Source: Methylococcales bacterium
GTDB taxonomy: Bacteria; Pseudomonadota; Gammaproteobacteria; Methylococcales; Methylomonadaceae
Assembly: GCA_028714175.1 (NCBI GenBank)
Contig: JAQTMV010000086.1
Coordinates: 1-20,103 of the forward strand
Reading direction: 5' to 3'
DNA: 20,103 nt
Shown: positions 1-20,103 of the stretch, piece after piece
How the letters are laid out: each line of letters starts with the position of its first letter
Numbering within the stretch: the first letter of the stretch is position 1
Made by a program: the position numbers and the translations under genes
Notes under the pieces: model-generated
Told to the model about the DNA's origin: nothing
The model's database searches: none
What the model saw: only the letters and a program-made list of their open reading frames with translations

Positions 1-1080
1 GTTCGGCGCCGAAACTCGTTTCATCGATGGCCAGCACCCGCCGAATCAGGGGCTCCGCCTCGGCCAGGCGGTTGGTGGCTTTTAGCAGTTGCGCCAGGTT
101 GTTGAGGTCAATGGCGACATCGGGATGCTCGGCGCCGAAACTCGTTTCGTCGATGGCCAGCGCCCGCCCCATCAGCGGTTCCGCCTCGGCCAGGCGGTTG
201 GTGGCTTTTAGCAGTTGAGCCAGGTTATTGAGACGGATAGCGACCTTGGGGTGTTCGGCGCCGAAACTCGTTTCGTCGATGGCCAGCGCCCGCCGCATCA
301 GCGGCTCCGCCTCGGCCAGGCGGTTGGTGGCTTGCAGCAATCCCGCCAGGTTGTTGAGGTCGCGGGCGACATTGGGGTGTTCGGCGCCGAAACTCGTTAC
401 ATCGATGGCCAGCGCCCGCCGCATCAGGGGCTCCGCCTCGGCCAGGCGGTGGGTGGCTTGCAGCAGTTGCGCCAGGTTGTTAAGGTTGACAGCGACATTG
501 GGGTGTTCGGCGCCGAAACCCGTTTCGTCGATGGCCAGCGCCCGCCGCATCAGGGGCTCCGCCTCGGCCAGGCGGTTGGTGGCTTGCAGCAGTAGCGCCA
601 GGTTGTTGAGACGGATGGCGACCTTGGGGTGTTCGGCGCCGAAACTCGTTTCATCGATGGCCAGCGCCCGCCGCATCAGGGGCTCCGCCTCGGCCAGGCG
701 GTTGGTGGCTTGCAGCAGTTGCGCCAGGTTGTTAAGATCGACAGCGACATTGGGGTGTTCGGCGCCGAAACTCGTTTCATCGATGGCCAGCGCCCGCCGC
801 ATCAGGGGCTCCGCCTCGGCCAGGCGGTTGGTGGCTTTTAGCAGTTGCGCCAGGTTGTTGAGACGGATGGCGACCTTGGGATGTTCGGCGCCGAAACTCG
901 TTTCGTCGATGGCCAGCGCCCGCCGCATCAGGGGCTCCGCCTCGGCCAGGCGGTTGGTGTCTTGCAGCAGTTGCGCCAGGTTGTTGAGACGGAGGGCGAC
1001 ATTGGGGTGTTCGGCGCCGAAACTCGTTTCGTCGATGGCCAGCGCCCGCCGCATCAGGGGCTCCGCCTCGCGATAGAGCG
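1..1080. repeat. Tandem array of about 8.6 near-identical 126-bp units. The array continues beyond the window start and encodes the TPR repeats of the NLR-like protein on the minus strand.
   Basis: The motif ggcgccgaaactcgtttc recurs at 7, 133, 259, 385, 511, 637, 763, 889 and 1015 (offsets shifted by 6 versus an earlier rough estimate; the period is 126). Units are roughly 90-95% identical at nucleotide level. Differences cluster in a roughly 45-nt segment of each unit. Confidence 0.95.
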
Positions 1081-2875
1081 CTTTTGTTAAATACATCAGG
1101 CCAAGTTGATTCATCAGGCGGCTGGTAGGGTCGGCGATGCCCTGTTCATCGGCGTAGCGGACGACTGTCAGTGCATGTGGTGCCAACGGCTCAAGTACCG
1201 GCCAGGCTCGTACATCCTGAGGATCGCCAACAAACGCAGCATTGAGCCATTGCGCCATTTCGTTCAAGCGCAGTTGCTCAGGGTCTTTAACCTGTCGTCG
1301 TGTTACTTCCTGCACCAGCTTGTGGATCGTGAAACTGGGGCTGTCGGCAGCGCGGGTAACGAGTGAATACGCTTCCAGATCGGCCAAATCCGCAAACGGG
1401 TCGCCCTCACCGGCAACATGGGGTACCGGCACGTCCAGAAGCGCTTCCGGAACCGGCGCCGGACTCAGCCAGGCAAGGCGTTGCAATAATTGCCGGGCCG
1501 GTTCGCCAAGCTGGTCGAACGAGGTTTGCCAGGTGACAAAAACACTCTTCTGGTAGTTCATCAAGCGCGGGTCGTTCCAGGCCAGCAGCTTATCCCGTTG
1601 CCGGGACCATTCCTGTACATAATTATCCAGGGTCAGGCGGCGCTGGGCAATGTAAGCGCCGGCCTGTTCCAGCGCCAATGGCAGACAATCCAGTTCCCTG
1701 GCCAATGCCTCAGCCTGTTGGTAGTCATCAGGCTGACGGCGCCGTTTGCCGCCGGTGCGCCGCAGCAAGAAGTCACTGGCGGCGGTTTCCGATAGCACCT
1801 GCACCGGCAATACGGTCACAGCATTGCTGTAGTGGCTCAGTCGGCCGGTCACCAACAGATGGCCGCCGCTGAGCTGAGCAATCAGTTCTTCAACGGCGCC
1901 GGCCGACTCCTCGCTATCGACGTTGTCGAGAATCATGAGCCAGCCCGGATGTTGGTTTAGCCAACTTAAGGCCGCATCGCGTTTTTTACCTTCGTCGGTT
2001 TCAGCTTGTTCAGGAAGATCCAGTATCCTGCGTTGAGTTAATGCCGCCAGATTACTTTGTAATGCGGTGGCCGTATCCGCGCCTGCGAATAACCGGGCGC
2101 TGTAACTTTCCGCATGCCGCCAGGCGTACTCAAGGGCAAGACGGGTTTTGCCGACACCTCCCAGGCCGCTGAGCACCCGGGCGACGGCTGGCGAACCCGC
2201 CATGTCCGGCACCGGACCCAGGCTTTGGCTCAGGTCTTCAAGCCAGGCATCCCGGCCCATGAATTGATCGCCGATGCTGGCGTCCGGCAGGTAAACCGGC
2301 TTGGTAACCGCGCCAGCCCGGGCCAGAATATCGTGAAGTTTGGAACGCAACACATCGACCGCCAGCCGGTCAGCGCTGGCAAATTGAATTTCCGGGTAGC
2401 GTTCAACCGCAGCCAAGCGGGCAAGATGGTGCTGTTGCTGGCTGCGCTGTTCTTCGATCAGTGTATAACCGGCATCGCGTTTGGCATCCACAGTCGGGAC
2501 AGCGATGATTAAGGTTTTATCGTGGTAGAGCGCCAGCCACGCTTCCCATTGGGTATAAGAGAGCGCCTGCGCACCGGGTTGCAGACAATCAACCAGCGGC
2601 GGCAGTCTTTGGCCAAGGTCCGGATAGCGCGTGCGGATCAAAACCAATGAGGGCGGCTGCGCGAGCGCACCCGTCATGTCACCCACCAGATGGATCACGG
2701 CATCGCAGTGGCGGATGTAGTCATCCAGCTTATCCAGCGTTTCGGTGCCGGTCGCGATGAAATCTTCCTGTACTTTGACCGAAACGTTGGGGCGTTCCAG
2801 GTCATGGCGCAAGGCATCGCGGTAACTACGAAACTCATCGCTGACGGTGGACAGGAAAAGGCTAACCTGCGTCAT
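1..2875 (-). CDS. NLR-like STAND NTPase with a DUF4062-like N-terminal domain, an NB-ARC module and C-terminal TPR repeats. The C-terminus is truncated by the window start.
   Basis: The minus-strand frame is open from the ATG at 2875-2873 to position 1. An aagga SD lies 9 nt upstream. The N-terminus reads MTQVSLFLSTVSDEFRSYRDALRHDL...DAVIHLVGDMTGA, which fits a DUF4062-like pattern. NB-ARC motifs are the P-loop GLGGVGKTRLALEYA, Walker B LMILDNVD, an RNBS-B-like GGHLLVTGR and the GxP motif LDCLPLALEQAG. These are followed by 42-aa TPR_10/12-like repeats (AEHPNVALRLNNLAQLLQDTNRLAEAEPLMRRALAIDETSFG) filling 1-1080. It is absent from the ORF track only because it runs off the window edge. Confidence 0.85.
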   Translation of the reverse strand, partial: MTQVSLFLSTVSDEFRSYRDALRHDLERPNVSVKVQEDFIATGTETLDKLDDYIRHCDAVIHLVGDMTGALAQPPSLVLIRTRYPDLGQRLPPLVDCLQPGAQALSYTQWEAWLALYHDKTLIIAVPTVDAKRDAGYTLIEEQRSQQQHHLARLAAVERYPEIQFASADRLAVDVLRSKLHDILARAGAVTKPVYLPDASIGDQFMGRDAWLEDLSQSLGPVPDMAGSPAVARVLSGLGGVGKTRLALEYAWRHAESYSARLFAGADTATALQSNLAALTQRRILDLPEQAETDEGKKRDAALSWLNQHPGWLMILDNVDSEESAGAVEELIAQLSGGHLLVTGRLSHYSNAVTVLPVQVLSETAASDFLLRRTGGKRRRQPDDYQQAEALARELDCLPLALEQAGAYIAQRRLTLDNYVQEWSRQRDKLLAWNDPRLMNYQKSVFVTWQTSFDQLGEPARQLLQRLAWLSPAPVPEALLDVPVPHVAGEGDPFADLADLEAYSLVTRAADSPSFTIHKLVQEVTRRQVKDPEQLRLNEMAQWLNAAFVGDPQDVRAWPVLEPLAPHALTVVRYADEQGIADPTSRLMNQLGLMYLTKALYREAEPLMRRALAIDETSFGAEHPNVALRLNNLAQLLQDTNRLAEAEPLMRRALAIDETSFGAEHPKVAIRLNNLAQLLKATNRLAEAEPLMRRALAIDETSFGAEHPNVAVDLNNLAQLLQATNRLAEAEPLMRRALAIDETSFGAEHPKVAIRLNNLALLLQATNRLAEAEPLMRRALAIDETGFGAEHPNVAVNLNNLAQLLQATHRLAEAEPLMRRALAIDVTSFGAEHPNVARDLNNLAGLLQATNRLAEAEPLMRRALAIDETSFGAEHPKVAIRLNNLAQLLKATNRLAEAEPLMGRALAIDETSFGAEHPDVAIDLNNLAQLLKATNRLAEAEPLIRRVLAIDETSFGAE

Positions 2876-3134
2876 GTTGATGTCCTTGTAACTGAGTGAT
2901 TGGTTTTATCTCGCCTCAGCAGGCGCCACTATAAAGAACAGGGTCAGATTTCAGTTATATAACCTATTCAAGTCATAAAACCATCTGCTTTTAAATTGGG
3001 GAAGCAGGTATGGATTTTTAGCCTCAAGCTATCATCCCCAGCCTATACAGCAAGCATTAACTATTCGGGGCAATGATCGATTGGAATTCATTTGTGCTAA
3101 CGAAAATTATACGCGCTACCAGGAAATATTAACA

Positions 3135-3260
3135 ATGGTTGCCGCAAACACGGCTTTTACAGATGGGCTGGCAAGCGATTCGGTTGCTTATCCGTGGCCT
3201 GGTTATCATTCCAATGCCTTATTGAATGTCTGTTTATCCCATTTTAAAGGTCAGCTCTAG
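3135..3260 (+). CDS. Hypothetical small protein of 41 aa (MVAANTAFTDGLASDSVAYPWPGYHSNALLNVCLSHFKGQL).
   Basis: An ATG at 3135 is preceded by aggaaa 8 nt upstream. The TAG stop at 3258-3260 is followed 12 nt later by a strong hairpin terminator. The ORF is below the length cutoff of the ORF track. It has no recognisable domain, so coding status is unproven. Confidence 0.25.
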   Translation: MVAANTAFTDGLASDSVAYPWPGYHSNALLNVCLSHFKGQL

Positions 3261-3272
3261 TAAATTTTGGGC

Positions 3273-3300
3273 GGCCACTATGCATAGTGGCCGGTTTTTG
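3273..3300 (+). terminator. Rho-independent terminator-like hairpin.
   Basis: A perfect 20-nt palindrome ggccactatgcatagtggcc at 3273-3292 is followed by ggtttttg. Confidence 0.5.
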
Positions 3301-3361
3301 CCTGTCAGACCTTGTCGATACCAATGGCCGCTGTAATAATCGTTAGCTGCCATTCTCCACA

Positions 3362-4795
3362 TTGTTTTCAGGAAGTTCATCCTGCTGGAACCAGCCGAAA
3401 TATTATATTGCCAGTAATGGAAGCCTTGGCGCGAAAAGCGTAACGGATAAGCCTGGCGCACTGGAAAGCATCGCGCAGCTCATGCACAACTATGACATTA
3501 CGCCCGCCGAAGTCGAAGCCGCCTTTCATGCGCCTGCCGCTTCCCGGCCTGTGCCTGCTCGGCGCAGCAGCGGCGATATCGCCAAGACCCTCTTCACTTA
3601 TCTCGGCGCAATTTTAATTGTCTCGGGCATCAGTGCCTATATCGGTACATTCTGGGAGAGCATGGGCAGTGTGATGCGGATTTTTGTGACACTAGGCGTT
3701 GGCTATATTCTGACCATCGTGCTGATTTCAGCTCTGCATGAGAAAAAATATCCGAGGCTTATCCTGCCGTTTGCGCTAGCCTCCGTGTTCATGCTGACAG
3801 GTGGCTGGTTCGTGCTCATCCACGAGTTGTTCCCGCACGGCGACAACTGGCGTGCCGCAGTGCTCTTCGTTTTCGGTGTTATGGCCCTGCACCAAGGTGC
3901 GCTGCTCAGCAAATACGGGCTAACGGTGCTGGCATTTACGGCACTCTTTTTTGTTTATGGATTTTTGCAAGTGGGCTTCGATCTGCTCGGCGTCCCGATC
4001 GCTGTCATCGCCATTGTCCTTGGCTGCTCGCTATTCCTGGTCGCCACCGCATTAGAGAACACGTCTCACCGCATACTCGCAGAACCCGCTTTGTTGAACG
4101 GGACCTGCTGGCTGAACGGCGGCCTGTTCGACCGCATCGCCATTGCCATCTCCGCGAACTGGGCGAGTCTGCTCACTGGTGTGTGCGTGATGTCCGCTGC
4201 CTATGGGCTGCAGAAGGCGGGGCGGTATTCGCGCCTGACCGGTCTCGGCTTTTTTGTCGGATCGATCATGGCCTATGACGGCTTGTTTGACCTCGTGCGC
4301 AACACGCCCGCCGAACTCTTCTACCTCGCAGTAACGACATCGATGCTCTATGCCTGCGTGGTTCTACAAAGCTGGTCGCTGTTATTCACCACTGTCGTTG
4401 CCATGCTCGGTTTCATCGGGTTTTACACTGCGCAATATTTCGCAAATTCTTTGGGCTGGCCCATCTCGCTTCTCCTCATGGGTGTCGCTTTCCTGGGCGT
4501 CGGCACGATTGCCATGAAGGTAAGACGATACATCCATCTAGCTATTCCTGGAAAATTTAGCTACAGGGAAATTAATTCTAAACTCAGCCCCCGGCCTGAC
4601 ATTAATCACATCGATCTTTCCATTCATATTCATCGTCATCTGATGTGCCAACGCCAACCCTATTCCAGTGCCTACAGTTTCACGAGTAAGCTCGTTTTCG
4701 CTGCGGTAAAACAGTTTAAAAATTTTCTTCATCTGGTCTTTGGCAACGCCGGGTCCAAAATCACGGACTATAAATTGCACACAGCCGGTAGTTAA
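3362..4795 (+). CDS. Polytopic inner-membrane protein with about 10 predicted TM helices and a soluble N-terminal region of about 70 aa. The start is uncertain. The last 90-odd codons lie past a compositional junction and are probably not native.
   Basis: A long ORF begins with TTG at 3362 and has internal ATGs at 3482 and about 3650. It contains many hydrophobic helices, for example LFTYLGAILIVSGISAYIGTFW, IFVTLGVGYILTIVLISAL, LILPFALASVFMLTGGWFVLI and LLGVPIAVIAIVLGCSLFLVATAL. GC falls from about 60% to about 40% near 4520, and after that the ORF runs antisense through the 3' end of the histidine-kinase gene. Confidence 0.55.
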   Translation: MFSGSSSCWNQPKYYIASNGSLGAKSVTDKPGALESIAQLMHNYDITPAEVEAAFHAPAASRPVPARRSSGDIAKTLFTYLGAILIVSGISAYIGTFWESMGSVMRIFVTLGVGYILTIVLISALHEKKYPRLILPFALASVFMLTGGWFVLIHELFPHGDNWRAAVLFVFGVMALHQGALLSKYGLTVLAFTALFFVYGFLQVGFDLLGVPIAVIAIVLGCSLFLVATALENTSHRILAEPALLNGTCWLNGGLFDRIAIAISANWASLLTGVCVMSAAYGLQKAGRYSRLTGLGFFVGSIMAYDGLFDLVRNTPAELFYLAVTTSMLYACVVLQSWSLLFTTVVAMLGFIGFYTAQYFANSLGWPISLLLMGVAFLGVGTIAMKVRRYIHLAIPGKFSYREINSKLSPRPDINHIDLSIHIHRHLMCQRQPYSSAYSFTSKLVFAAVKQFKNFLHLVFGNAGSKITDYKLHTAGS

Positions 4796-6664
4796 TAAAT
4801 GGCAGCTTAGTTCAATCACTTTTTTATCTGCCCTAGCGGAAAATTTGATGGCATTATCGACCAGATTAATCATGATTTGAATCAACGAGTCGGGATTTAC
4901 CTTGATTTTGGCTTGAGCCGCCTCCTGATCACAGGACAATTTTAATTCAAACCCCGCCCGCATGATTTGGCTGGAAACTTTCGATTGAATGCCGTCCATC
5001 AATTCGGCAGCCGTCAGACATTTCAGATGAGGCGGTTTATCGTTGCGAGTCAATTTGGCAAGCTGCAGTACATTATTGATCAAACGTGTAAGACGTTCGC
5101 TTTCATCCAGGATAAAATCGTAATAGGATAGTTTCCTGCATTCATCGACCCAGCCTGCTTGAAGCATTTCGCCGTACATGCGGATCGAAGTGAGCGGGGT
5201 TTTCAATTCATGGCTGACCGCAGAAACAAAATCCTGCTGTTGATTGACCAGCTTTATTTGGCCGATGCCGAGCCGGTACAAAGCATAAAATCCGCCAAAA
5301 AATACGATGACCAGTACGATTGTCAACCAGATAATGACCCATCCTCCAGAACCGACAGGAAGCCGGGTTATGCTGAAAATAAGTTGTAATTCACTTAATG
5401 GATCAGACAACTGGGCTTGATAAAGCAACTCGCCGGTTAACTCTTTAGCGCTAGATAAATATCCACGCGGACTTCGACCGGTAAAAGCAGACAGTACATT
5501 GCCTTGAAAAACAACGAGCAAATCGCTCATTTGTGAAAGCGCGGTTTCCTGAAAAGCAGAATTGATATTTCCCTGTAGGAAAAAATCTTTTTCAATCAAT
5601 AAGCCCTGGATATAACGCTGACCATTCAGCCACACTTTACGAAACAGGACAAAGTGGCCACTGTCGAGTTGGCTGAATTCAAATGGATCAATGGCGCTTT
5701 CAAATGTGCGGATTCGCAAAGGTTTGGCATCAGACCTAATGGCAGACGTTGCCGGGAAGCTGCTTTCTTCCATTGCGTAGCCGGCTGTTTTTTTTGCTTT
5801 CCCGATTCCTTCGGGCAATATATTTTGTTCGGTTCGCGCTTTTTTTTGTAACTTGCCTGTTATGTTTTCCTTTGTTTCCGCCAGTTTTGGTTTGGTGGCT
5901 TCAACTTGAAATGATTGCCTTAATTCTACATCCTCCAATCGACCCAATTTGTTTTCCTGCTGGCTTTTCCCTGGAGCAATTTTATTGAGTTCGTCAAAAG
6001 CCGCCTGACCTTCGCTTGCGGGAGATGCAGCTGATTTTTCAAGCTTGCCTTTCAGGGTGCTTGCACCAGAGGAGACGGCATCTTTTTCCCTTTCGGCCAA
6101 ACCGCTATCCGGTTTATTAAGCGAATTACTGTGTACGTCCTTATCCTGTTTCCCAGAAATGGCGGTTTGAGTCCTCACCAAACGGTTTTTGTTCAATATC
6201 AGTTGTATCCGGTTCTGCAAGTCGATTCTTGCCGCCAGTTCTTGTTCAGTAATGCCGTAACTTCCGGCTTTTTCGTTGTCTTCCGGGATAAAAGGCGTTA
6301 CTAATTTACCTGCCGCATCCACCTGGAAATAACCGATTAAACCGGGTATTTCCGATTGAACAGGGTACTTGGAAAGCGGCGAACATTGTAAAAAGTTAGC
6401 GCTTGAAACACCCGCCACGTTTAAAAAGGAATAATCGGTGAACGCCCGTTGCTCTTCGATAGTAATCAGCCGAATCAAATGATTGTTGATGCGGTTGGTC
6501 AGTTCGTCCGCCATCAACTGATGCTGGTGAAAAGTTTCCCATTTCAACCGGCTATAGGATTGCTGAATCAATAGTGTAGTGGGTATCGCCAGGGTCAGGA
6601 ATAGTACTGTCAACCACCACCGGAGTGTGCTTTTATTCAGCCTTTCAAGATGATTGCGTTTCAT
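4538..6664 (-). CDS. Sensor histidine kinase (two TM segments, periplasmic sensor domain, HisKA and HATPase_c).
   Basis: TM1 is WWLTVLFLTLAIPTTLL and TM2 is GGWVIIWLTIVLVIVFFGGFYALY. The H-box is SAVSHELKTPLTSIRMYGEML, the N-box is LVDNAIKFS, G1 is VRDFGPGV and G2 is GTGIGLALAHQ. Its start overlaps the upstream response-regulator stop by 4 nt (ATGA). Confidence 0.9.
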   Translation of the reverse strand: MKRNHLERLNKSTLRWWLTVLFLTLAIPTTLLIQQSYSRLKWETFHQHQLMADELTNRINNHLIRLITIEEQRAFTDYSFLNVAGVSSANFLQCSPLSKYPVQSEIPGLIGYFQVDAAGKLVTPFIPEDNEKAGSYGITEQELAARIDLQNRIQLILNKNRLVRTQTAISGKQDKDVHSNSLNKPDSGLAEREKDAVSSGASTLKGKLEKSAASPASEGQAAFDELNKIAPGKSQQENKLGRLEDVELRQSFQVEATKPKLAETKENITGKLQKKARTEQNILPEGIGKAKKTAGYAMEESSFPATSAIRSDAKPLRIRTFESAIDPFEFSQLDSGHFVLFRKVWLNGQRYIQGLLIEKDFFLQGNINSAFQETALSQMSDLLVVFQGNVLSAFTGRSPRGYLSSAKELTGELLYQAQLSDPLSELQLIFSITRLPVGSGGWVIIWLTIVLVIVFFGGFYALYRLGIGQIKLVNQQQDFVSAVSHELKTPLTSIRMYGEMLQAGWVDECRKLSYYDFILDESERLTRLINNVLQLAKLTRNDKPPHLKCLTAAELMDGIQSKVSSQIMRAGFELKLSCDQEAAQAKIKVNPDSLIQIMINLVDNAIKFSARADKKVIELSCHLLTTGCVQFIVRDFGPGVAKDQMKKIFKLFYRSENELTRETVGTGIGLALAHQMTMNMNGKIDVINVRPGAEFRINFPVAKFSRNS

Positions 6665-7368
6665 CGCGATTGACCGAGCAACCGGTAACCGGCGCCACGC
6701 ACTGTAATCAGAAATTGAGGTTCGGCTGGATCAACTTCAATTTTACGGCGGAGTTTGGCGATGTGGATATCAACGGTACGGGTTTCTATGTCCAGATGCC
6801 TGGCATAGCCCCACACTTTATTTAACAATTCTTCGCGGGATACCGGGCGTTCCGTATTGCTTTGCAGGTACTGCAGAATCTCTATTTCACGCCGTGTGAA
6901 GGAAAAGTTTTCGGCCCCGTACCGCCCGGTGAGATTTTGGCAATCAATTGATAAATCATTGCCCAATTGTATCGTTTTATTTTGCGCTAACCCATTTCGG
7001 GTTCGACGTAAAACAGCCTGCACCCTGAGTACCAGTTGCGCCACCGAAAACGGCTTGGCGACATAATCATCCGCACCCAGCGATAACCCTTCAATAATAT
7101 CTTCATCACTGCTTTTTGCCGTCAGCATAATAATGGCATGATCATGAGCCTGCTCACGGATTCGATTACAAATTTCAAAACCGTTCATGCCCGGCAACAT
7201 GACATCCAGCAGAATCAAGTCGAATTTGCCGGTTAAAGCCCTATCCAAGCCTTCAACGCCATGCCCGGAAAAGTCGACCTCGTAGCCGTGATAGACGAAC
7301 ACATCGATCAGTCCGATACGGATAGCGGCTTCATCTTCAATAATCAGAATGCGTAATTTACGGGACAT
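6661..7368 (-). CDS. OmpR/PhoB-family response regulator (receiver domain plus winged-helix Trans_reg_C).
   Basis: Chosen start is MSRKLRILIIEDE (ATG at 7368). The ORF track extends it to a TTG at 7407. The receiver shows the conserved acidic pocket and LILLDVMLPGMNG, with the phosphoacceptor Asp in LLDVMLP. The C-terminal domain reads TVDIHIAKLRRKIE...VRGAGYRL. Confidence 0.9.
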   Translation of the reverse strand: MSRKLRILIIEDEAAIRIGLIDVFVYHGYEVDFSGHGVEGLDRALTGKFDLILLDVMLPGMNGFEICNRIREQAHDHAIIMLTAKSSDEDIIEGLSLGADDYVAKPFSVAQLVLRVQAVLRRTRNGLAQNKTIQLGNDLSIDCQNLTGRYGAENFSFTRREIEILQYLQSNTERPVSREELLNKVWGYARHLDIETRTVDIHIAKLRRKIEVDPAEPQFLITVRGAGYRLLGQSR

Positions 7369-7434
7369 GGCAACTAGTGGGCCGGATAGAAACGAATAGT
7401 TTAGCAAGAGGAAGACATTTTCCTGCTTTTCATA

Positions 7435-7451
7435 TGTAAATTGTTTGTAAA
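7435..7451. promoter_or_regulatory. Direct repeat TGTAAA-N5-TGTAAA (11-bp periodicity) in the intergenic region between the two-component operon and the divergent pspA-like operon. Candidate OmpR-family binding site.
   Basis: TGTAAA at 7435-7440 and again at 7446-7451. OmpR/PhoB regulators typically bind direct repeats with about 10-11 bp spacing (established knowledge). Binding is not shown. Confidence 0.3.
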
Positions 7452-14888: not shown

Positions 14889-15287
14889 TTAATTAATGTC
14901 CGACGACCACTTGATATCGTGAATCTCAGGATCAGATTCAAGAACTTTCTTTAACGCCTCAGCAGTATGACCAACCTTTGTCCTCGTATCCCATTTTTTA
15001 AGCCACCGCCTGATAAATGGCTTGGAGGGTTCAATAAAACATAATAATTCATCTGGCTCGCCATTTTGATGACCGCAGCCAATCCATAAAGGAAAGTCTT
15101 CATTTTCAAGTTCAACCATCCAGCCCCAATCTTCCCCACCGATACTGGTGACCTTAAGACCATAATGCGGAAGTTTTTCTTGAAGATACTCAGCCAGACG
15201 CTTACCCCAAAGACCCGGATTTATTGCCTCTTCCTCGCCATTGTATGGCGGAAATTTGTTTGATTTAAATTCGACCAGCGTTTTCAT
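14889..15287 (-). CDS. Hypothetical protein of about 132 aa with no recognised domain.
   Basis: The ORF reaches up to 15350 but would overlap the upstream SDR gene. The internal ATG at 15287 (MKTLVEFKSNKF...) avoids the overlap. GC is lower than in neighbouring genes. Confidence 0.45.
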   Translation of the reverse strand: MKTLVEFKSNKFPPYNGEEEAINPGLWGKRLAEYLQEKLPHYGLKVTSIGGEDWGWMVELENEDFPLWIGCGHQNGEPDELLCFIEPSKPFIRRWLKKWDTRTKVGHTAEALKKVLESDPEIHDIKWSSDIN

Positions 15288-15300
15288 ATCGCATTTTTCA

Positions 15301-16149
15301 TTACACGTAATTCCGATAGTTACCGATTGAGTAGTTTGCACATATCTCATACAGAGCGTTCACTGCTTGCCTGTCGCGGCTGTAAGTACAGTTGGCTTCG
15401 GTCCTATGTTCATAATATCGGCCTGTCTTTTGCTGTCCGATGGGATGAGTCGCAAGCCAAACCGGCGTTTCGGCTCCCTGATCCGGCGTTTCATGTCCAC
15501 CAAATCCCAAATTATTACTCAACTCTGAATTCACATCGCCAGGATGACAGGCATTGACAGCGATCTGATAGGGCTTTAATTTTTCGGCAAAGACTGAACT
15601 TAACATACGGTTGGCTTGTTTGGATTGTCGGTAAGCCAAGTCATTATCATAGCTTCGGCGAGTGAATTCCAAATCATTGAGATCCAGTCCTCCAGCCCAG
15701 TAGCTGGCTACATTAACAATACGCGCAGGCGCTGATGCTTTTAATATCTCCATGAATTCGTCGATTAACCAATAGTAGCCAAGAACATTAGTGGCAAACT
15801 GCATTTCAATGCCTTCAGGTGTTTCCTGTCGAGAGCGGGGTGTACAAGCTGCATTGTTGATCAAAACATGTAAAGGTCCTTGCCACCGTTGTGCCAAGTT
15901 GTGGATTTGTTCATATCGGCTTAAGTCGGCAAGCACATAGCCCACTTCGGAATTTCCGGTCAGAGACCTTATTTCATTGACCGCCAATACCGCTTTCTGT
16001 TGGTCGCGGCATACTAATACCACACTGGAATCTTGTAGGTTAGCCAATTGCCGGGCAATGGCCTTGCCTATCGCCCCGGTAGCACCGGTGACCAGGAAAA
16101 CTTTGGTGTGAGTATTTTGCCCACTTGAAGACTGTGCAGTGATTCCCAT
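15301..16149 (-). CDS. Short-chain dehydrogenase/reductase (SDR) family oxidoreductase.
   Basis: Rossmann motif VFLVTGATGAIGKAIA, NNAA motif, and catalytic YxxxK (YRQSK). Confidence 0.85.
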   Translation of the reverse strand: MGITAQSSSGQNTHTKVFLVTGATGAIGKAIARQLANLQDSSVVLVCRDQQKAVLAVNEIRSLTGNSEVGYVLADLSRYEQIHNLAQRWQGPLHVLINNAACTPRSRQETPEGIEMQFATNVLGYYWLIDEFMEILKASAPARIVNVASYWAGGLDLNDLEFTRRSYDNDLAYRQSKQANRMLSSVFAEKLKPYQIAVNACHPGDVNSELSNNLGFGGHETPDQGAETPVWLATHPIGQQKTGRYYEHRTEANCTYSRDRQAVNALYEICANYSIGNYRNYV

Positions 16150-16256
16150 CAGCTCAATGCTTTATAGCGATATTGAAAGGTATAGTTATATTCATGTTAA
16201 AAACATTACGTCTACTCTATACCGCTACCCATTACTCCACAAAATCATCATAACGG

Positions 16257-16496
16257 CTAGCCTTTCAAGGCGATGGTCTCAACCCGGTCAACTGTATCGA
16301 GAGTTATTTTGCCTTCCTGAGCTAACCAGCCAATGCTGCGCTGGATGATTTTTTCTTCTTCAGGAAGCTCCCGAATCAATTTGGCAACAGGGGTCGCATC
16401 ATTTTCAGCCAAGTAATGCCACACGTTTCCCGCAGTCAAACCCACGCGTTCAGGCATAGCTATTTCAGGCGCCGCTGCATTCGGTTGGGGAGCCAC
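16257..16496 (-). CDS. Small winged-helix protein, DUF2582-like.
   Basis: AGNVWHYLAENDATPVAKLIRELPEEEKIIQRSIGWLAQEGKI resembles the DUF2582 wHTH pattern. The ORF track start at 16496 is a GTG. An alternative ATG at 16457 gives MPERVGL. Confidence 0.55.
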   Translation of the reverse strand: MAPQPNAAAPEIAMPERVGLTAGNVWHYLAENDATPVAKLIRELPEEEKIIQRSIGWLAQEGKITLDTVDRVETIALKG

Positions 16497-16782
16497 GGCT
16501 TGAGCCTTTTTAGCGGGTTTCTGATCCGGGCTTGGTTTTGAAGGTAAGTAAACGCGGATAATAGGATAGACTCGACCAGATAAGGTTTCTATACGGTAGT
16601 TATTATAAATATCCGGTGTTGATGCATAAACATTTTCTGGTAAACCGGCGATTTAATGTTTAATAACGGAATCAATACCCTTTGAACTGGCCGTTGCTTT
16701 ATTTGGCTACTCAATAGCAGCATAAGATAAGCCGTATCCTGTCGCTAAATCTTGTGCCTGGAAAGGTTTTGCACTACCGCAA

Positions 16783-17739
16783 TCATGGCTTGATCTTAGC
16801 CGCAAAACGAATAATGTCGGGAAGCAATTGCAGATAGACAGCAAGCTTTCCTAAAACATCCACCGCATCACTTGGCGGTTTGATGACACGTATCCTCACA
16901 TGCTCAATGATTTCAAGTAACATTTTTTTGCCTCGAAATCGATTGATGCCAACTTCCAGCAAAGGCGCTAAAAAAGGCGCGATTATGAGCGTTGCCATTA
17001 ATCCGCTTGTCGCTCCAACCAAACCTACCCAAGAAGGAACTCCGGTTAGACTCACCCATAGACTGCCCCACCAGGATAAATTGCTTGTATAAATCGCTGT
17101 TGCAGCCGCTTGACCAGTAGCAATGCTACTTCCAAAGCCACTGGCTCCCAGACCTTTACCCATTAGGCCGGTCAATAAAAACATCAATGCTTCTCGTGAA
17201 CCTTCAACAGGAAGAGACATTCGTTCAATATGATGGGAGAGTTGTCTTTCAACTTCCTCACGCTGATTTGTTGGAAGTCCGTTAAGTAAATCACTCAATT
17301 TGGCATCGAAATTGGCTTGATACTGAGCGACATAGTCCTGAAGCTTTTTGTCCAAGCCGCGTAAATCAAGCAAATCGACTTCAATCGCGGTATACAATTC
17401 AAGTTGCTTACCCGATAAAGAAATAGAATTGAGTTGTTTATCCGGCTGATTTTTCTTAACGGTGGCTGCTGACTTGATAAACCCCCAGGCAGAACGAGGC
17501 AGGGTAGCTAACTCCTTGGGAATATCGCCTCGGTGTCGCCAATGGCGGCTTAAGACAACACTCGGCGAAGCAAAATACTTCAAATAGACTGGCGTGACAC
17601 GATTTTTTGCCTCGTTAAGGTGCGACTCAACGATGTCGTTTAAATTTTGCCGGTGTTGTTCAGTAGCTTGGGCGTAACCACAAGAAAAGCGCTGGTCCGG
17701 AAGCTTTGCTTGATCGTTTTTATTACCTGGCTGATACAT
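16783..17739 (-). CDS. Hypothetical 318-aa protein with a soluble N-terminal domain and a C-terminal glycine-zipper-like membrane region.
   Basis: A long clean ORF. The C-terminal part reads LLTGLMGKGLGASGFGSSIATGQAAATAIY...GLVGATSGLMATLIIAPFLAPLL (small-xxx-small repeats). No family was recognised. Confidence 0.6.
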   Translation of the reverse strand: MYQPGNKNDQAKLPDQRFSCGYAQATEQHRQNLNDIVESHLNEAKNRVTPVYLKYFASPSVVLSRHWRHRGDIPKELATLPRSAWGFIKSAATVKKNQPDKQLNSISLSGKQLELYTAIEVDLLDLRGLDKKLQDYVAQYQANFDAKLSDLLNGLPTNQREEVERQLSHHIERMSLPVEGSREALMFLLTGLMGKGLGASGFGSSIATGQAAATAIYTSNLSWWGSLWVSLTGVPSWVGLVGATSGLMATLIIAPFLAPLLEVGINRFRGKKMLLEIIEHVRIRVIKPPSDAVDVLGKLAVYLQLLPDIIRFAAKIKP

Positions 17740-18177
17740 TCAATTCAAATTTTTTCGGCTTGTCAAACAGTTGGGGAAATTTGCCCGTTTAAAAAAAAAT
17801 AGCATTACAGTTTATCCCTATCCTCAGCATCGGCTTCGTGCTTTTCCCCCTCGTCCTTTATGTATTTCCACATGCCGTTTTGATGCAGCCATATTGGATC
17901 AGCATTTTGTTGGATATACTCTTCAGCATCAATTCCTTCGATCATGGGCGGTCTTTTGATTCTTACCTGCTTTCCATTTAGGAATACCCATTGGTACTTC
18001 TTTTAATTTTCTTCTTTTGTCTTTTTTCTTACACGCTTCTGAGCAGTTGTAAGCTTCTTTTTTAACTTTGCCATAGTTCAATTTTATAATGCTGGTTTTA
18101 TCTGTTTCCCAGAGCCACAATATTTACTCTGTCATCGGTCACTTGCGTCCCTTGGGGTTGTTTTATGATTTCACTCA

Positions 18178-18937
18178 TCACAAGTCCTGAGCATGTTTGC
18201 TTACTAACTGCCATAATCCCAGCACACTAACTGCGACCAGGCCACCGCCAATCCAGCGTTTAAAAAGCAAATCATTGCGCATAATGGCGTCATGCGCTTT
18301 CAAACCCACTAGGTGTCCTATGGCAGCAATCGGTAAAAGCGCGAGTGCCGTTAGAAAATGCAAATCAACGGATAGAGCGATGAACGTCGTCATTTTGATG
18401 CTTACCAGAATGAACCATAATACAAATAAGGTGTCCCGCAATTTGTATTTGCTGACATTATGCATATAAACGGCGACCATCAGCGGTGCTCCGCTCAAGG
18501 AGATCCCGGCAATGTAACCTCCTAAAACGAGCAGGCCTCTATCCGCCCACACATGATGACTTTCAATACCTCGGTTGAATAGCCAGGTAAAACCATACAG
18601 CAAGGTAACCGAATAAATAAAGCTATTCAGCCATAAGACCGGTAGATTCACCAGTCCAAAAACGCCTATGATAGCGGGAGGAATAATGTAAATGGAAGAG
18701 TGCCGCAAATACTGCCAGTCGACATTATGCAAGCGGTTAAGCAGCGTTAAGCCGGAAAAAAATAGTAAATGCACCGCAATGATTGGCAACCATAAAAGCG
18801 GATTATTATGCACAAATAACATCAGCGGTAACCCTAATGCGGCGCCACCAAAACCTAGCCCCGTCCGAACAAAGCCGGTCCAAACAAACACCAGAGCAAT
18901 GGTCAGTATTTGATAAAGAGAAAAATCGGATAACATA
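18178..18937 (-). CDS. TauE/SafE (DUF81) family anion-exporter-like permease.
   Basis: GFVRTGLGFGGAALGLPLMLF is typical of the family, with about 7-8 TM helices. Start chosen at ATG 18937 (MLSDFSLYQ). The ORF track extends it to a TTG at 18963. Confidence 0.8.
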
Positions 18938-19239
18938 ATTTTAAAATATAAGCCATTTTTCAAAACAGCCGGCTATGATCCTCACCTAACGGCCAACTGT
19001 TGGTTGTAAGCGTCCGTAACAATCCGGAAGCTTACCGGATTAGCTCAATCATACCTCAGTTAGTTCAATCATAATTGACAATTATCCGGGAAATGCAATG
19101 AGACCAAAACTTAGACAAGCCATCATAAATGCCAATCCTGATTATTTTTTTGGGATAAAGCCCATCAAGAAAAGTACAGAAAAACTATTCCCAAAGAGGA
19201 ATATCAAATAATCCGAAATCATCTATTTATTTTGTAAAT

Positions 19240-19509
19240 GTGTCACAGGGCGAATTGGATCCGTGCATGACGATTATTGCTTCTGATCCCGAAGTAATGA
19301 AAGAAATACGTTTTAAATCAATCATTGCTGATTGTCGTCACTTTGAAAAAGATGCGGCTACTGTTTTGTGGAGAGCAGAAAACGAACAAGCCCTACTTAA
19401 ATCCTTTATACAAAAAGAGTTTGATGACATTATGGCTAATTTCGATACCAAAATTGTTAAATTAAAAAAGAAAAACAAAGTCGTTATTTGCAATGGCGTT
19501 GTTATTTAA
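19240..19509 (+). CDS. Hypothetical small protein in the AT-rich region. Weak call.
   Basis: An ORF of 89 aa with a GTG start (ATG alternative at 19267) and no recognisable motif. It lies in about 38% GC DNA with nearby ORF-free sequence. Confidence 0.3.
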   Translation: MSQGELDPCMTIIASDPEVMKEIRFKSIIADCRHFEKDAATVLWRAENEQALLKSFIQKEFDDIMANFDTKIVKLKKKNKVVICNGVVI

Positions 19510-20103
19510 TCAACTTCCTCGCACTCATACAGTGCATATCTATAGAAACGCGAAGAAACGGAATTAATCGTTTTGATATTTATTGATTCTGAAAATTCAG
19601 ACACCGAAAATCCACAAAGCAGTCATTCGCAACTATTCAATACTGGGATGGCTGACAGCCTATACCCGACCCATTTGAGACATTCGGATATGGATTTAAG
19701 CTTCCTGATACCGGTCATTGGCAAAGTAGCAGTATCGACCCACTAGAGTCACTCAATCCAAATTTCCGAATGGCAGCATACTCACACTGATAGCGACCAG
19801 TCAATTCTAGCGTGCTAAGTGTATTATAGGTATTTATACGTATTGTTTTTTTAGCTTGAAGTGTTACAGTTTTTTAAGAGTTGAAAAGGTTCATTTTTTA
19901 CTATGAATGGCCGGTGGCAGTTCTGTTGATCATCGTACCAATAGTTTAAGTGTGGCTTTTATTAACAGTGTTGAAGAGCAGAAACTAACGCAGTCTTATG
20001 CGCTCTGTGCTCCTTAATACCTCCGGGCAACACACAGTAATCGCGACGTAAGCTCTGAAAACGGGGCGATTTAATATGTGTTTACGCAGCCTGGTAAAGT
20101 CCA

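Follow-up and report, generated by a model that had tools for sequence, protein, structure and literature searches.

Three preprints from 2026 describe DUF4062 (NIR) as a TIR-like NADase that depletes NAD+ in the Avs2, Swarozyc, Vulcan, Vesta and Evangelion systems. Defence was lost in the catalytic-glutamate mutants PsAvs2 E108Q, KpSwz E97A, Vulcan E98Q and VstA E103Q, and NAD+ depletion was gone in each mutant assayed (PsAvs2, KpSwz, Vulcan and VstA); in Evangelion (Eva01), both F11 and E87 are needed, and their mutation abolishes defence (2026 preprint). Genes for NIR proteins adjoin defence genes in 20% of cases, compared with 3.9% expected (2026 NIR preprint). The output of Swarozyc, Evangelion, Vulcan and Vesta is NAD+ depletion and abortive infection; these four lack a STAND NTPase and sense through small auxiliary domains, HEAT repeats or a partner phosphatase. 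In PsAvs2 (NIR/DUF4062-Avs2 from Pseudomonas chlororaphis; Le Mouellic et al. 2026, preprint, 10.64898/2026.09.04.749371), the sensor is an irregular, terminase-binding Avs2 domain.

Fungal NB-ARC-TPR NLRs of Podospora anserina (Dyrka et al. 2014, PMC4986451; 4Y6C/4Y6W) combine an NB-ARC module with 42-aa KLC-type TPRs of >85% mutual identity, and show repeat-number polymorphism, with variable residues on the ligand-binding face. These eukaryotic proteins carry HET, sesB-like, amyloid-motif and other effectors, with functions in allorecognition or cell death. The eukaryotic proteins NPHP3, TTC41, NWD1/2 and TEP1 follow the module order NIR-like domain, P-loop STAND NTPase and repeats, but their NTPase is of the NACHT/NPHP3_N type and their roles are ciliary, vault-related, telomerase-related or not known. 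AfsR (the Streptomyces SARP-NB-ARC-TPR protein; 8K60/8JKE) activates transcription and binds DNA through an N-terminal SARP domain, while Apaf-1 and plant NLRs join CARD, CC or TIR domains to WD40 or LRR repeats.

The window analysed here is an entire contig of 20,103 nt from a Methylococcales MAG, and at its left end lies the greater part of a single gene, horizontally acquired, that encodes an NLR-like protein. The minus-strand ORF starts with ATG at 2875 and stays open through base 2 (958 codons, with no stop); because the window is the whole contig, the C-terminus is missing through an assembly break inside the repeat array. The gene belongs to a large NIR-NB-ARC-TPR family, with ~2000 homologues, the closest being 93% and 82% identical. 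Effector, STAND NTPase and repeat sensor follow one another in a single polypeptide, and the tripartite STAND/NLR-like architecture proposed in an earlier note on this DNA (DUF4062-like, NB-ARC, TPR) was borne out by Pfam, structure prediction, fold search and profiles. The motifs listed there were all present: LFLSTVS (aa 6-12), GLGGVGKT (237-244), LMILDNVD (313-320) and CLPLALEQAG (397-406). Judged by homology, the protein is a putative member of a class of antiphage sensors known since 2026. It has its effector domain and motifs in common with Swarozyc, Evangelion, Vulcan and Vesta, from which it differs by an insert of ~35 aa in NIR between strand C and helix C. It differs from PsAvs2 in its NTPase, which is of the NB-ARC/AP-ATPase type with no PADLOC Avs match, and in its sensor, where 42-aa KLC-type TPRs recur regularly and almost unchanged. 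The coordinates are collected in Table 1.

Table 1. Positions within the 20,103-nt window of the NLR-like gene, its predicted domains and motifs, and the adjoining upstream elements.
Feature	Position	Strand	Basis or remark
Partial CDS, NIR(DUF4062)-NB-ARC-TPR STAND protein	1..2875	−	Translation, Pfam, homologues, contig end
NIR/DUF4062 TIR-like domain, aa 1-190	2306..2875	−	~35-aa helical insert, strand C to helix C
Glu111 codon, predicted catalytic glutamate (S106-Y-T-Q-W-E111)	2543..2545	−	Invariance and Eva01 alignment
NB-ARC module (predicted NBD-HD1-WHD), aa 204-567	1175..2266	−	Pfam, NCBIfam NF040586, AF2 and Foldseek, profile
P-loop GLGGVGKT	2144-2167	−	Motif coordinates
Walker B LMILDNVD	1916-1939	−	Motif coordinates
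Sensor-1 LLVTGR, aa 340-345	1841-1858	−	Motif coordinates
GxP motif CLPLALEQAG	1658-1687	−	Motif coordinates
MHD-like His, FTIHKLVQE, aa 515-523	1307-1333	−	Motif coordinates
Tandem 126-nt units (42-aa KLC-type TPR repeats), ~8.4-8.5 copies, array incomplete	1..1070	−	TRF
~160-nt upstream leader or promoter region, travels with gene	2876..3037	−	L007 identity ends at 3037
Perfect 9-bp-stem palindrome with T-run, terminator-like	3272..3303	+	Where L090 homology ends

We consider it reasonably probable that the product of the gene works on its own as an NLR-like sensor of innate immunity (abortive infection) with ligand-triggered NAD+ depletion. At rest, the protein would be held closed by its NB-ARC module, and the long TPR solenoid would act as the ligand sensor, with a variable face at positions 23, 26, 27, 33, 36 and 37 of each 42-aa repeat. 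By analogy with Apaf-1, plant NLRs and Avs, binding of a foreign protein, most probably from a phage, to the TPR array would let the NB-ARC module exchange its nucleotide and oligomerise, bringing the N-terminal NIR/DUF4062 domains together. Once clustered, these domains would be expected from homology to form an active NADase using Glu111, an output established experimentally for other DUF4062 proteins outside this protein's clade (2026 preprints). If this mechanism is true, the newly described NIR/DUF4062 NADase effector extends to the NB-ARC chassis of plant and animal apoptosome-like proteins, and places that chassis in methanotrophs, nitrifiers and polyphosphate accumulators, groups of environmental importance with little-studied antiphage systems. 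The family would then also allow fungal HIC-NLRs and human NPHP3-type proteins to be compared directly with a bacterial system, and its regular, designable 42-aa TPR array would be a tractable model for writing or rewriting NLR specificity.

The TPR repeats named in the earlier note were confirmed by Pfam (TPR_12, 5.8e-94; TPR_10, 1.5e-72); the note overlooked the main oddity of the gene, a near-identical tandem array in which variation falls at a few set positions. The 126-nt units show 91% matches across the array (TRF) and 87-96% pairwise nucleotide identity, with pS of 0.146 and pN of 0.060. Over the eight full repeats, 29 of the 42 positions are invariant and five are clearly variable; the hypervariable positions in the window are 23, 26, 27, 33 and 36 of each unit. 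The same positions vary family-wide, within-protein entropy being highest at these five and at position 37 (58 proteins, 468 repeats), a spacing that, from the sequences, would fit one face of helix A. The region matches the KLC1/2 TPRs (2.5e-38) and the Podospora 42-residue repeats (4y6c/4y6w), and scores 220.7 bits against a cut-off of 100 with Pfam TPR_NPHP3. Copy number is at least 8.4 here, compared with 17.3 in a 91%-identical relative (L171), and ranges from 1 to 9 over the sampled family. The array thereby shows both properties by which fungal HIC repeats are recognised, namely >85% identity over at least 100 aa and repeat-number polymorphism. We tentatively raise the possibility that the family is a bacterial counterpart of these highly internally conserved repeat NLRs, a self-contained one-gene cassette with a repeat-shuffled sensor. 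Such a cassette, with its own upstream region, would move between phyla; recombination would both homogenise and reshuffle its near-identical 42-aa TPR units without loss of hypervariability on one helix face, so that new specificities could arise from repeat shuffling and not from point mutation alone. The family might then represent the prokaryotic form of the NIR-STAND-TPR architecture of eukaryotic NPHP3 and TTC41.

The NLR-like gene is mobile as a one-gene cassette, the form in which its family has spread across phyla. In a 92.6%-identical relative (L090), the gene is absent at the same locus, homology with this gene-less contig stopping at window position 3288, while L171 carries the whole gene with ~17 repeats. 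An unrelated contig (L007) holds a version that is 85.6% identical at the nucleotide level, copies are found on Sinorhizobium megaplasmids, and tandem paralogues occur. The contrast of about 15 GC points reported in the earlier note is real (0.613 at 1-2875 versus 0.457 at 4538-20103), though the stretch 3362-4537 also stands at 0.55, and the related contig L090 has a GC of 0.52-0.58 beside the junction. GC3 is 0.70 for the NLR-like gene versus 0.38-0.56 for its neighbours. Across L171, GC runs from 0.43 in one flank through 0.57-0.70 in the gene to 0.41-0.49 in the other flank, and the gene exceeds its flanks in all six low-GC contexts (the window, L002, L003, L006, L007 and L171); in the high-GC contig L005 it equals them. 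Horizontal acquisition, as the earlier note had proposed, is upheld by the absence of the gene from the L090 locus, the GC anomaly and the 85.6%-identical copy in an unrelated context. We rejected the view that the whole of 1-4500 is one acquired island, since the DUF2157-like gene (GC 0.55) is also present in gene-less L090, and the view that high GC merely reflects an Ala/Arg-rich TPR composition, since GC3 is 0.70 overall and still 0.63-0.66 outside the repeats. Megablast of positions 1-8000 against E. coli genomes matched nothing, and an exact 34-mer from the window had no match among metagenome contigs.

The term "defence island" did not hold: the GC profile of L171 confines the GC-rich segment to a single gene, and a scan of 10 neighbouring proteins in the window revealed no defence effector, the sole PADLOC match being RtcR. 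Six homologue contexts inspected gene by gene had mostly housekeeping neighbours, and in a survey without a control set, known or candidate defence genes (SIR2-HerA, MADS-like, PDC or Cas1) lay within 10 kb at about 4-5 of 26 loci. Likewise, "Avs-type" is apt as an analogy, given the effector-STAND-repeat order, but not as a family assignment: no PADLOC-DB v2 family (Avs, bNACHT or any other) matched the protein at E ≤ 0.1, in a library dated 2023 that has no Avs6-21 or NIR models. The protein lies outside the Avs1-5 and bNACHT families as modelled in PADLOC. The candidate-defence reading itself is supported by the architecture, the conserved catalytic residues, effector swapping, mobility and the diversification of the putative sensor.

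The weak association with known antiphage genes would also suit the same machine engaged in another conflict, in which plasmids, mobile elements or non-kin cells are sensed in place of phage and NAD+ depletion kills or arrests the cell. Fungal allorecognition/NLR genes are typified by near-identical repeats with a hypervariable face and by polymorphism in copy number, and the bacterial hosts of this family are environmental and often aggregate-forming (Nitrosomonas, Accumulibacter, Zoogloea, methanotrophs). However, all DUF4062/NIR systems tested to date are antiphage, and no partner or allelic system is visible; we regard a non-phage target as fairly unlikely.

The N-terminal domain has a TIR-like / nucleoside-deoxyribosyltransferase-like alpha/beta fold. 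When the proposed HMM searches were carried out, the TPR assignments (TPR_12, TPR_10) stood, while DUF4062 and NB-ARC each fell just under the Pfam gathering score. For DUF4062 (PF13271), the match reached 23.9 bits where 24.7 are required (E 5e-5; aa 7-71, model positions 3-67 of 82) and breaks off at the 35-aa insert; precomputed PF13271 matches are found on most homologues and precomputed PF00931 matches on many. The check by structure prediction, together with fold search and profiles, supports both assignments. Searched against PDB with phmmer, the first 200 aa gave a chance match only and did not retrieve the KpSwz or TEP1 structures. E111 is invariant, occurring in all 149 cluster representatives, and F7 is kept in 134 of the 150 sequences obtained when the window protein is aligned with them. 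Alignment with Eva01 (hhalign) equates F7 with F11 and E111 with E87; its probability is only 30%, yet the motifs match exactly. The earlier statement that no effector role is established for DUF4062 is out of date, as the 2026 preprints show NADase activity and the catalytic glutamate and N-terminal aromatic residue are kept here. The motif reads SYTQWE, compared with SYTEME in Eva01, Gln replacing Glu85 of Eva01; given this substitution and the ~35-aa insert, the substrate or regulation of this NIR domain could differ. That the domain is instead a nucleotide/nucleoside N-glycosidase (CMP hydrolase- or deoxyribosyltransferase-like) or a TIR-type signal generator that does not deplete NAD+ seems to us distinctly unlikely. 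The same NIR subtype is also fused to NACHT-like, NPHP3_N plus TEP1-like WD40 propeller, and TIR-containing proteins.

The NTPase is an AP-ATPase/NB-ARC whose nearest relatives are AfsR and the NB-ARCs of plants and animals. Pfam NB-ARC (PF00931) scored 22.9 bits against a cut-off of 23.5 (E 6e-5; aa 235-450, model positions 23-243 of 248) and DUF7779 matched at 8.6e-10 (aa 452-532). Walker A, Walker B, sensor-1 (T-x-R), GxP and the MHD-like His were all found, and their key residues are invariant in alignments. In the AF2 model (aa 196-600, pLDDT 86.6), the module is predicted to adopt the NBD-HD1-WHD fold; Foldseek placed it nearest to resting NRC2 (1.2e-11) and ADP-bound Apaf-1 (TMq 0.65), with further matches to CED-4, ZAR1, Sr35 and Roq1. 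A NOD profile built from 21 homologues retrieved AfsR, the nearest solved relative by profile (1.6e-13), the NB-ARC protein 9h2l (1.7e-7) and plant NLRs from PDB sequences; with phmmer, the single NOD sequence matched nothing except KLC through its first TPR, so the profile was needed for the AfsR match. At least 80 loci share this NOD chassis (31-56% identity), and 36 of them carry NIR as the N-terminal module; the seven non-NIR N-termini scanned comprised three TIR_2 domains and one each of SEFIR, Mrr-type nuclease, Ser/Thr kinase and canonical DUF4062. The best locus among the matches listed in a scan of genome contigs was 56% identical.

That the top PDB sequence match of the NOD is a transcription regulator, AfsR, and that some chassis relatives bear Ser/Thr kinase N-termini would agree with a non-immune regulatory STAND in the style of AfsR, MalT or NPHP3, whose TPRs respond to a metabolite or protein of the cell itself and whose NIR domain modulates NAD-linked physiology. 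Housekeeping neighbours in several genomes point the same way, as does the interspersion of defence and non-defence clades in a 2026 Nature survey of STAND proteins, which reports 198 defence-associated clades. Yet the protein has no DNA-binding or other regulatory output domain, and the gene has no conserved neighbour or operon. The patchy distribution, the GC anomaly and presence or absence between near-identical genomes also argue against a regulator, as do the hypervariable positions of the putative sensor face and the swapping of the N-terminal module with TIR, SEFIR and Mrr nuclease domains, and we judge this role improbable.

Identity with FxsT, the TPR protein of FxSxx-COOH peptide processing in Actinobacteria, is suggested by the NCBIfam equivalog NF040586 (303.4, just over the curated cut-off of 300; aa 204-567), by plasmid homologues annotated fxsT and by the like UniRef name of one homologue (P0040), but is very improbable and was rejected, since this homology is limited to the NB-ARC/WHD part (model positions 7-370 of 830), the NIR domain lies outside the model, the hosts are Proteobacteria, Nitrospirota and others and not Actinobacteria, and no radical-SAM, peptidase, maturase or FxSxx precursor gene was found in the window upstream of the gene, in L171 downstream of it, or in L002, L003 and L005-L007. 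Short-read assemblies break in the repeat array, and the NLR-like family may therefore be systematically truncated and mis-annotated in MAGs. The practical lesson is that PADLOC (2023) misses this protein and the NCBI equivalog model would call it "FxSxx-COOH system TPR protein".

The NLR-like gene, on the minus strand, runs for 958 codons to the window's first base without a stop. Neighbouring proteins, looked up by exact match, identified the window as the whole of a 20,103-nt contig from a Methylococcales MAG, so that the left end is a contig end rather than an arbitrary cut; the assembly evidently broke within the TPR repeat array. The intergenic region before the ATG measures 486 nt (43% GC). 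Searches against Pfam returned very strong matches to TPR_12 and TPR_10, as well as TPR_NPHP3 (220.7 bits, cut-off 100) and DUF7779 (8.6e-10); DUF4062 (23.9 bits, cut-off 24.7) and NB-ARC (22.9 bits, cut-off 23.5) both fell just short of threshold, the NB-ARC match spanning nearly the entire model. A model of the N-terminal domain (aa 1-200), built with an alignment of 34 homologues, has a beta-alpha-beta flavodoxin-like core (pLDDT 88, pTM 0.85), and the DUF4062 domain of the published defence protein PsAvs2 gives the same kinds of structural match (CMP hydrolase, ribosyltransferases, many TIR domains; Le Mouellic et al. 2026, 10.64898/2026.09.04.749371). The modelled NB-ARC nucleotide-binding oligomerisation module (NOD; aa 196-600, pLDDT 86.6) matched resting-state NRC2, ADP-bound Apaf-1 (TMq 0.65), CED-4, ZAR1, Sr35 and Roq1, while its sequence profile, compared with solved structures, matched AfsR (1.6e-13), the NB-ARC protein 9h2l and plant NLRs. 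Every NB-ARC switch motif can be recognised and is conserved: P-loop (GLGGVGKT), Walker B (LMILDNVD), sensor-1 (LLVTGR), GxP (CLPLALEQAG) and MHD-like (FTIHKLVQE). The C-terminal region resembles kinesin-light-chain (KLC) TPRs (2.5e-38) and, among solved structures, the 42-residue repeats of Podospora (4Y6C, 4Y6W). The TPR matches, predicted folds, NOD profile and switch motifs bear out the tripartite DUF4062-like/NB-ARC/TPR architecture proposed in the earlier note.

The same note regarded the effector role of DUF4062 as not established, a view overtaken by three 2026 preprints on this domain retrieved by full-text search. DUF4062 was shown to be a TIR-like NADase by Osinski et al. (2026 preprint); their Klebsiella Swarozyc system responds to phage portal, depletes NAD+ and needs E97. 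Le Mouellic et al. (2026 preprint, 10.64898/2026.09.04.749371) renamed the domain NIR, found that E108Q in an Avs2 protein with a NIR effector abolishes both defence and NAD+ depletion, and reported NIR as the effector in Vulcan and Vesta as well. In the Evangelion system, F11A and E87A each destroy defence by Eva01 from the S. aureus plasmid pMW2 (Ibarra-Chavez et al. 2026 preprint). When this Eva01 was aligned with the family profile (hhalign), F11 corresponded to F7 of the window protein, and S82-Y-T-E-M-E87-Y paired with S106-Y-T-Q-W-E111-A, with the motifs in exact register; the alignment probability was low because the target was a single sequence. Searching 1.84 billion representatives by profile yielded 2032 proteins with the NIR subtype of the window gene, and E111 is unvarying in the best representatives (149/149). 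Given the alignment of F7 and E111 with Eva01 and the invariance of E111, the predicted catalytic apparatus is intact at the level of sequence. Relative to Eva01, the subtype has a helical insert of ~35 aa that separates strand C from helix C, and it carries Gln where Eva01 has Glu85.

At the other end of the protein, Tandem Repeats Finder delineated 8.5 copies of a 126-nt unit (91% matches). The eight complete 42-aa repeats in the window are identical at 29/42 positions and vary mainly at 23 (N/K/D), 26 (I/V/L/R), 27 (R/D/N), 33 (Q/L/G) and 36 (Q/K); elsewhere the changes are isolated ones. Their pairwise nucleotide identity of 87-96%, with a mean pS of 0.146 and a mean pN of 0.060, indicates recent origin or homogenisation. 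In 468 repeats from 58 family members, entropy within proteins peaked at positions 23, 27, 33, 26, 36, 19 and 37, and the near-fixed structural positions were E1-A2-E3, L10, I12, G18, H21-P22, L28, N30-L31, L34-L35 and R40. The variable sites are spaced (i, i+3/4, i+10, i+13/14) as expected for a single face of helix A, the putative binding face of the array. Copy number ranged from 1 to 9 among sampled proteins and reached 17.3 in L171, a noisy long-read contig. In fungal NB-ARC-TPR NLRs, too, the repeats are >85% identical within a protein and polymorphic in number, and their hypervariable sites fall on the concave face of TPRs modelled on KLC2 (Dyrka et al. 2014, PMC4986451).

The GC content of the gene is 0.613 and its GC3 0.70, compared with a GC3 of 0.38-0.56 in its neighbours; its non-repeat parts have a GC3 of 0.63-0.66, and amino-acid composition therefore does not account for the excess. 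The gene arrangement of the window is common to the related contigs L008 (96.7% identical) and L001 (99.97%). The 108-kb contig L090 shows 92.6% identity across window 16101-3418 and 3422-3288 and has the same order of genes (SDR-RtcR-RtcB-SPFH-VWA-PspA-RR-HK-DUF2157). The NLR gene is absent from its syntenic locus: homology ends at window 3288, within a perfect palindrome, after which L090 runs into an RND efflux operon. L007, from an unrelated context, matches window 153-3037 alone (85.6% identity), a stretch covering the gene plus ~160 nt upstream. L171 is 91% identical to window 3-3275 and contains the whole gene. Its array (96% matches) leads into a C-terminal cap with the pattern "SYGFEH..QNYYVLGQSLGWSENQILEAV", beyond which lie ligase-OB, lepA, lepB, rnc, era and recO; GC rises from 0.43 upstream to 0.57-0.70 within the gene and falls back to 0.41-0.49 downstream. 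Because these four sources (L008/L001, L090, L007 and L171) bound the unit, the GC-rich "island" amounts to this one gene. The DUF2157-like gene at 3362-4537 (GC 0.55) was ruled out as part of the acquisition, since L090 has it too.

Beyond the window and L171, gene GC exceeded that of the flanks in Nitrosomonas communis (0.57 vs 0.43-0.47), Nitrosomonas sp. PY1 (0.52 vs 0.43-0.44) and the related contigs L006 (0.64 vs 0.47-0.48) and L007 (0.58 vs 0.43-0.48); no such excess was seen in L005, from a high-GC host. Homologues 57-93% identical occur in Nitrosomonas, Nitrospira, Halomonas, Accumulibacter, Variovorax, Zoogloea and Methylococcales, and Sinorhizobium megaplasmids carry copies at 40.7% identity; none were found in the phage genomes searched. 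GC excess, presence and absence, homologue spread and plasmid copies speak for a one-gene cassette transferred horizontally on repeated occasions. The horizontal acquisition suggested earlier holds on the GC contrast, the gene-less L090, the unrelated context of L007 and the megaplasmid copies, a picture clearly different from that of an immobile core gene. The palindromes at the synteny breakpoint (see table) may be REP-like or terminator hairpins.

Coordinates of the features discussed, in the window and in related contigs
Sequence	Coordinates	Strand	Feature	Remarks
Window	1-2875	minus	NLR-like ORF (partial)	ATG at 2875
Window	1-1070	minus	TPR repeat array	
Window	3272-3303		Perfect palindrome CGGCCACTATGCATAGTGGCCG + T-run	Exactly at end of homology with gene-less L090
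L008	~4560-4640		~36 extra nt, more palindromes	At breakpoint spot
L090	14133-14267		Counterpart of window palindrome site	Additional 848 bp with 199-aa ORF nearby
Window	3362-4795	plus	DUF2157-like membrane-protein ORF	30.9 bits, cut-off 32.4; raised GC (0.55); overlaps convergent histidine-kinase gene by 258 nt
Window	7513-11271		PspA/IM30-like gene, small membrane protein, VWA, SPFH/Band-7	Between two-component system and rtc genes; set kept in L090
Window	11439-11510, 11513-11584	minus	Two tandem tRNA-like genes	Rfam tRNA, 54.3 and 62.1 bits; immediately 3' of rtcB
Window	11736-12959		rtcB	
Window	13186-14802		rtcR	Divergent
L007	5119-5390		End of P0002, closest full-length homologue (82% identity)	SEC-C-type zinc motif (GRNDPCPCRSGKKFKKCCG; Pfam PF02810) in place of the family's usual short C-terminal cap
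L100 (JGI Ga0302323_100025432)	3694-5207		Copy of the gene	92.8% identical to window 970-2310
L002 (N. communis CP011451)	2535-9899, 13327-20047		Elements on either side of homologue P0010	One side: 500-aa Cas1 + 1138-aa family-B DNA polymerase (casposon-like); other side: tyrosine integrase + Toprim/DUF3987 primase element
L016, L024, L029, L056	7557-13627 (L016), 3480-11908 (L056)		Arrays of 2-3 paralogous NLR-like chassis genes	Variovorax rhizosphaerae, Planctomycetota MAGs, Holophagales MAG

A scan with the NOD profile, taking one genome per species, confirmed at least 414 of 600 candidates, from Acidobacteriota, Planctomycetota, Cyanobacteria, Proteobacteria, Verrucomicrobiota, Chloroflexota and even Methanothrix; 80 loci were kept. 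NIR sat on this shared NOD chassis in 36 of them. Of seven non-NIR N-termini scanned, three were TIR_2, and the others were SEFIR, an Mrr-type restriction nuclease, a Ser/Thr kinase and a canonical DUF4062. The NIR subtype is in turn joined to NB-ARC+TPR, a NACHT-like module (NCAB2), NPHP3_N with TEP1-like WD40 propellers, or a giant TIR-rich protein. These combinations point to an interchangeable N-terminal effector, a modularity typical of NLR-like conflict systems. Several genomes hold tandem paralogues of the chassis gene (2 copies in Variovorax, 3 in a Holophagales MAG). In the metagenomic copy on L100, homology is confined to the part from aa ~190 onward, with the ORF opening just 78 nt before it; the DNA upstream is unrelated to the window, which means that this variant has lost its NIR domain or had it replaced.

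The term "defence island" overstates the context, as the GC-rich segment is a single gene with non-defence neighbours. PADLOC gave no match for the NLR-like protein itself, and its sole match among 10 window neighbours was RtcR, as a CARF-AAA-HTH regulator; the others are a two-component system, PspA, VWA, SPFH, RtcB, SDR and membrane proteins. Elsewhere, the N. communis homologue adjoins a casposon-like pair of Cas1 and family-B polymerase and an integrase/primase element, the Nitrosomonas sp. PY1 homologue is bordered by zapD on one side and a cupin gene on the other, AAA_13 and Fic genes being 6-8 kb away, and housekeeping genes surround the homologue in two further genomes. A PADLOC survey of 291 ORFs around 26 NIR-NLR loci (E<=1e-10) returned SIR2+HerA, MADS-like components, PDC-S06, PDC-S68 and Cas1. 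These fell at ~4-5/26 loci, a descriptive figure without a control set that resembles the published 20% of NIR genes near defence genes (3.9% expected; Le Mouellic et al., 10.64898/2026.09.04.749371).

The best-supported reading, which we consider probable, is that the gene encodes a single-protein NLR-like immune sensor. By analogy with homologous systems, a ligand would bind the TPR array and release the NB-ARC switch, NB-ARC oligomerisation would cluster the NIR domains, and their Glu111-dependent NADase activity would deplete NAD+ and abort infection. In this NIR-STAND-TPR working the window protein would resemble PsAvs2. By the tests available, it falls outside the Avs and bNACHT families as modelled in PADLOC 2023; its NTPase belongs to the NB-ARC/AP-ATPase clade and its predicted sensor is a KLC-type array of highly internally conserved (HIC) repeats. 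Lee et al. (Nature 2026) document a broad range of defence-associated STAND clades. It is unlikely that the same machine is aimed at non-phage targets, and somewhat less likely still either that this NIR subtype uses another substrate or makes a signalling product, or that the protein is a non-immune regulatory STAND protein. The annotation FxsT (NF040586) is very improbable as the true identity: its score barely passes (303.4 bits, cut-off 300), but the match is limited to the NB-ARC region and no FxsT partner genes were found in any context inspected. For the putative immune sensor, the proposed repeat shuffling and the clean one-gene cassette behaviour are worth following, and so are the systematic truncation and misnaming of family members in short-read MAGs.

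Several neighbouring features merit a brief record. The DUF2157-like ORF is shorter in relatives (351 aa in L008, 397 aa in L090), so its 3' end in the window looks like read-through; its 5' end differs from that of L090. The PspA-to-SPFH gene set may be a membrane-stress module. ARAGORN assigned no anticodon to the tandem tRNA-like genes ("tRNA-???", 2-nt anticodon tt), which may be tRNA-like RNAs linked to the Rtc RNA-repair operon.
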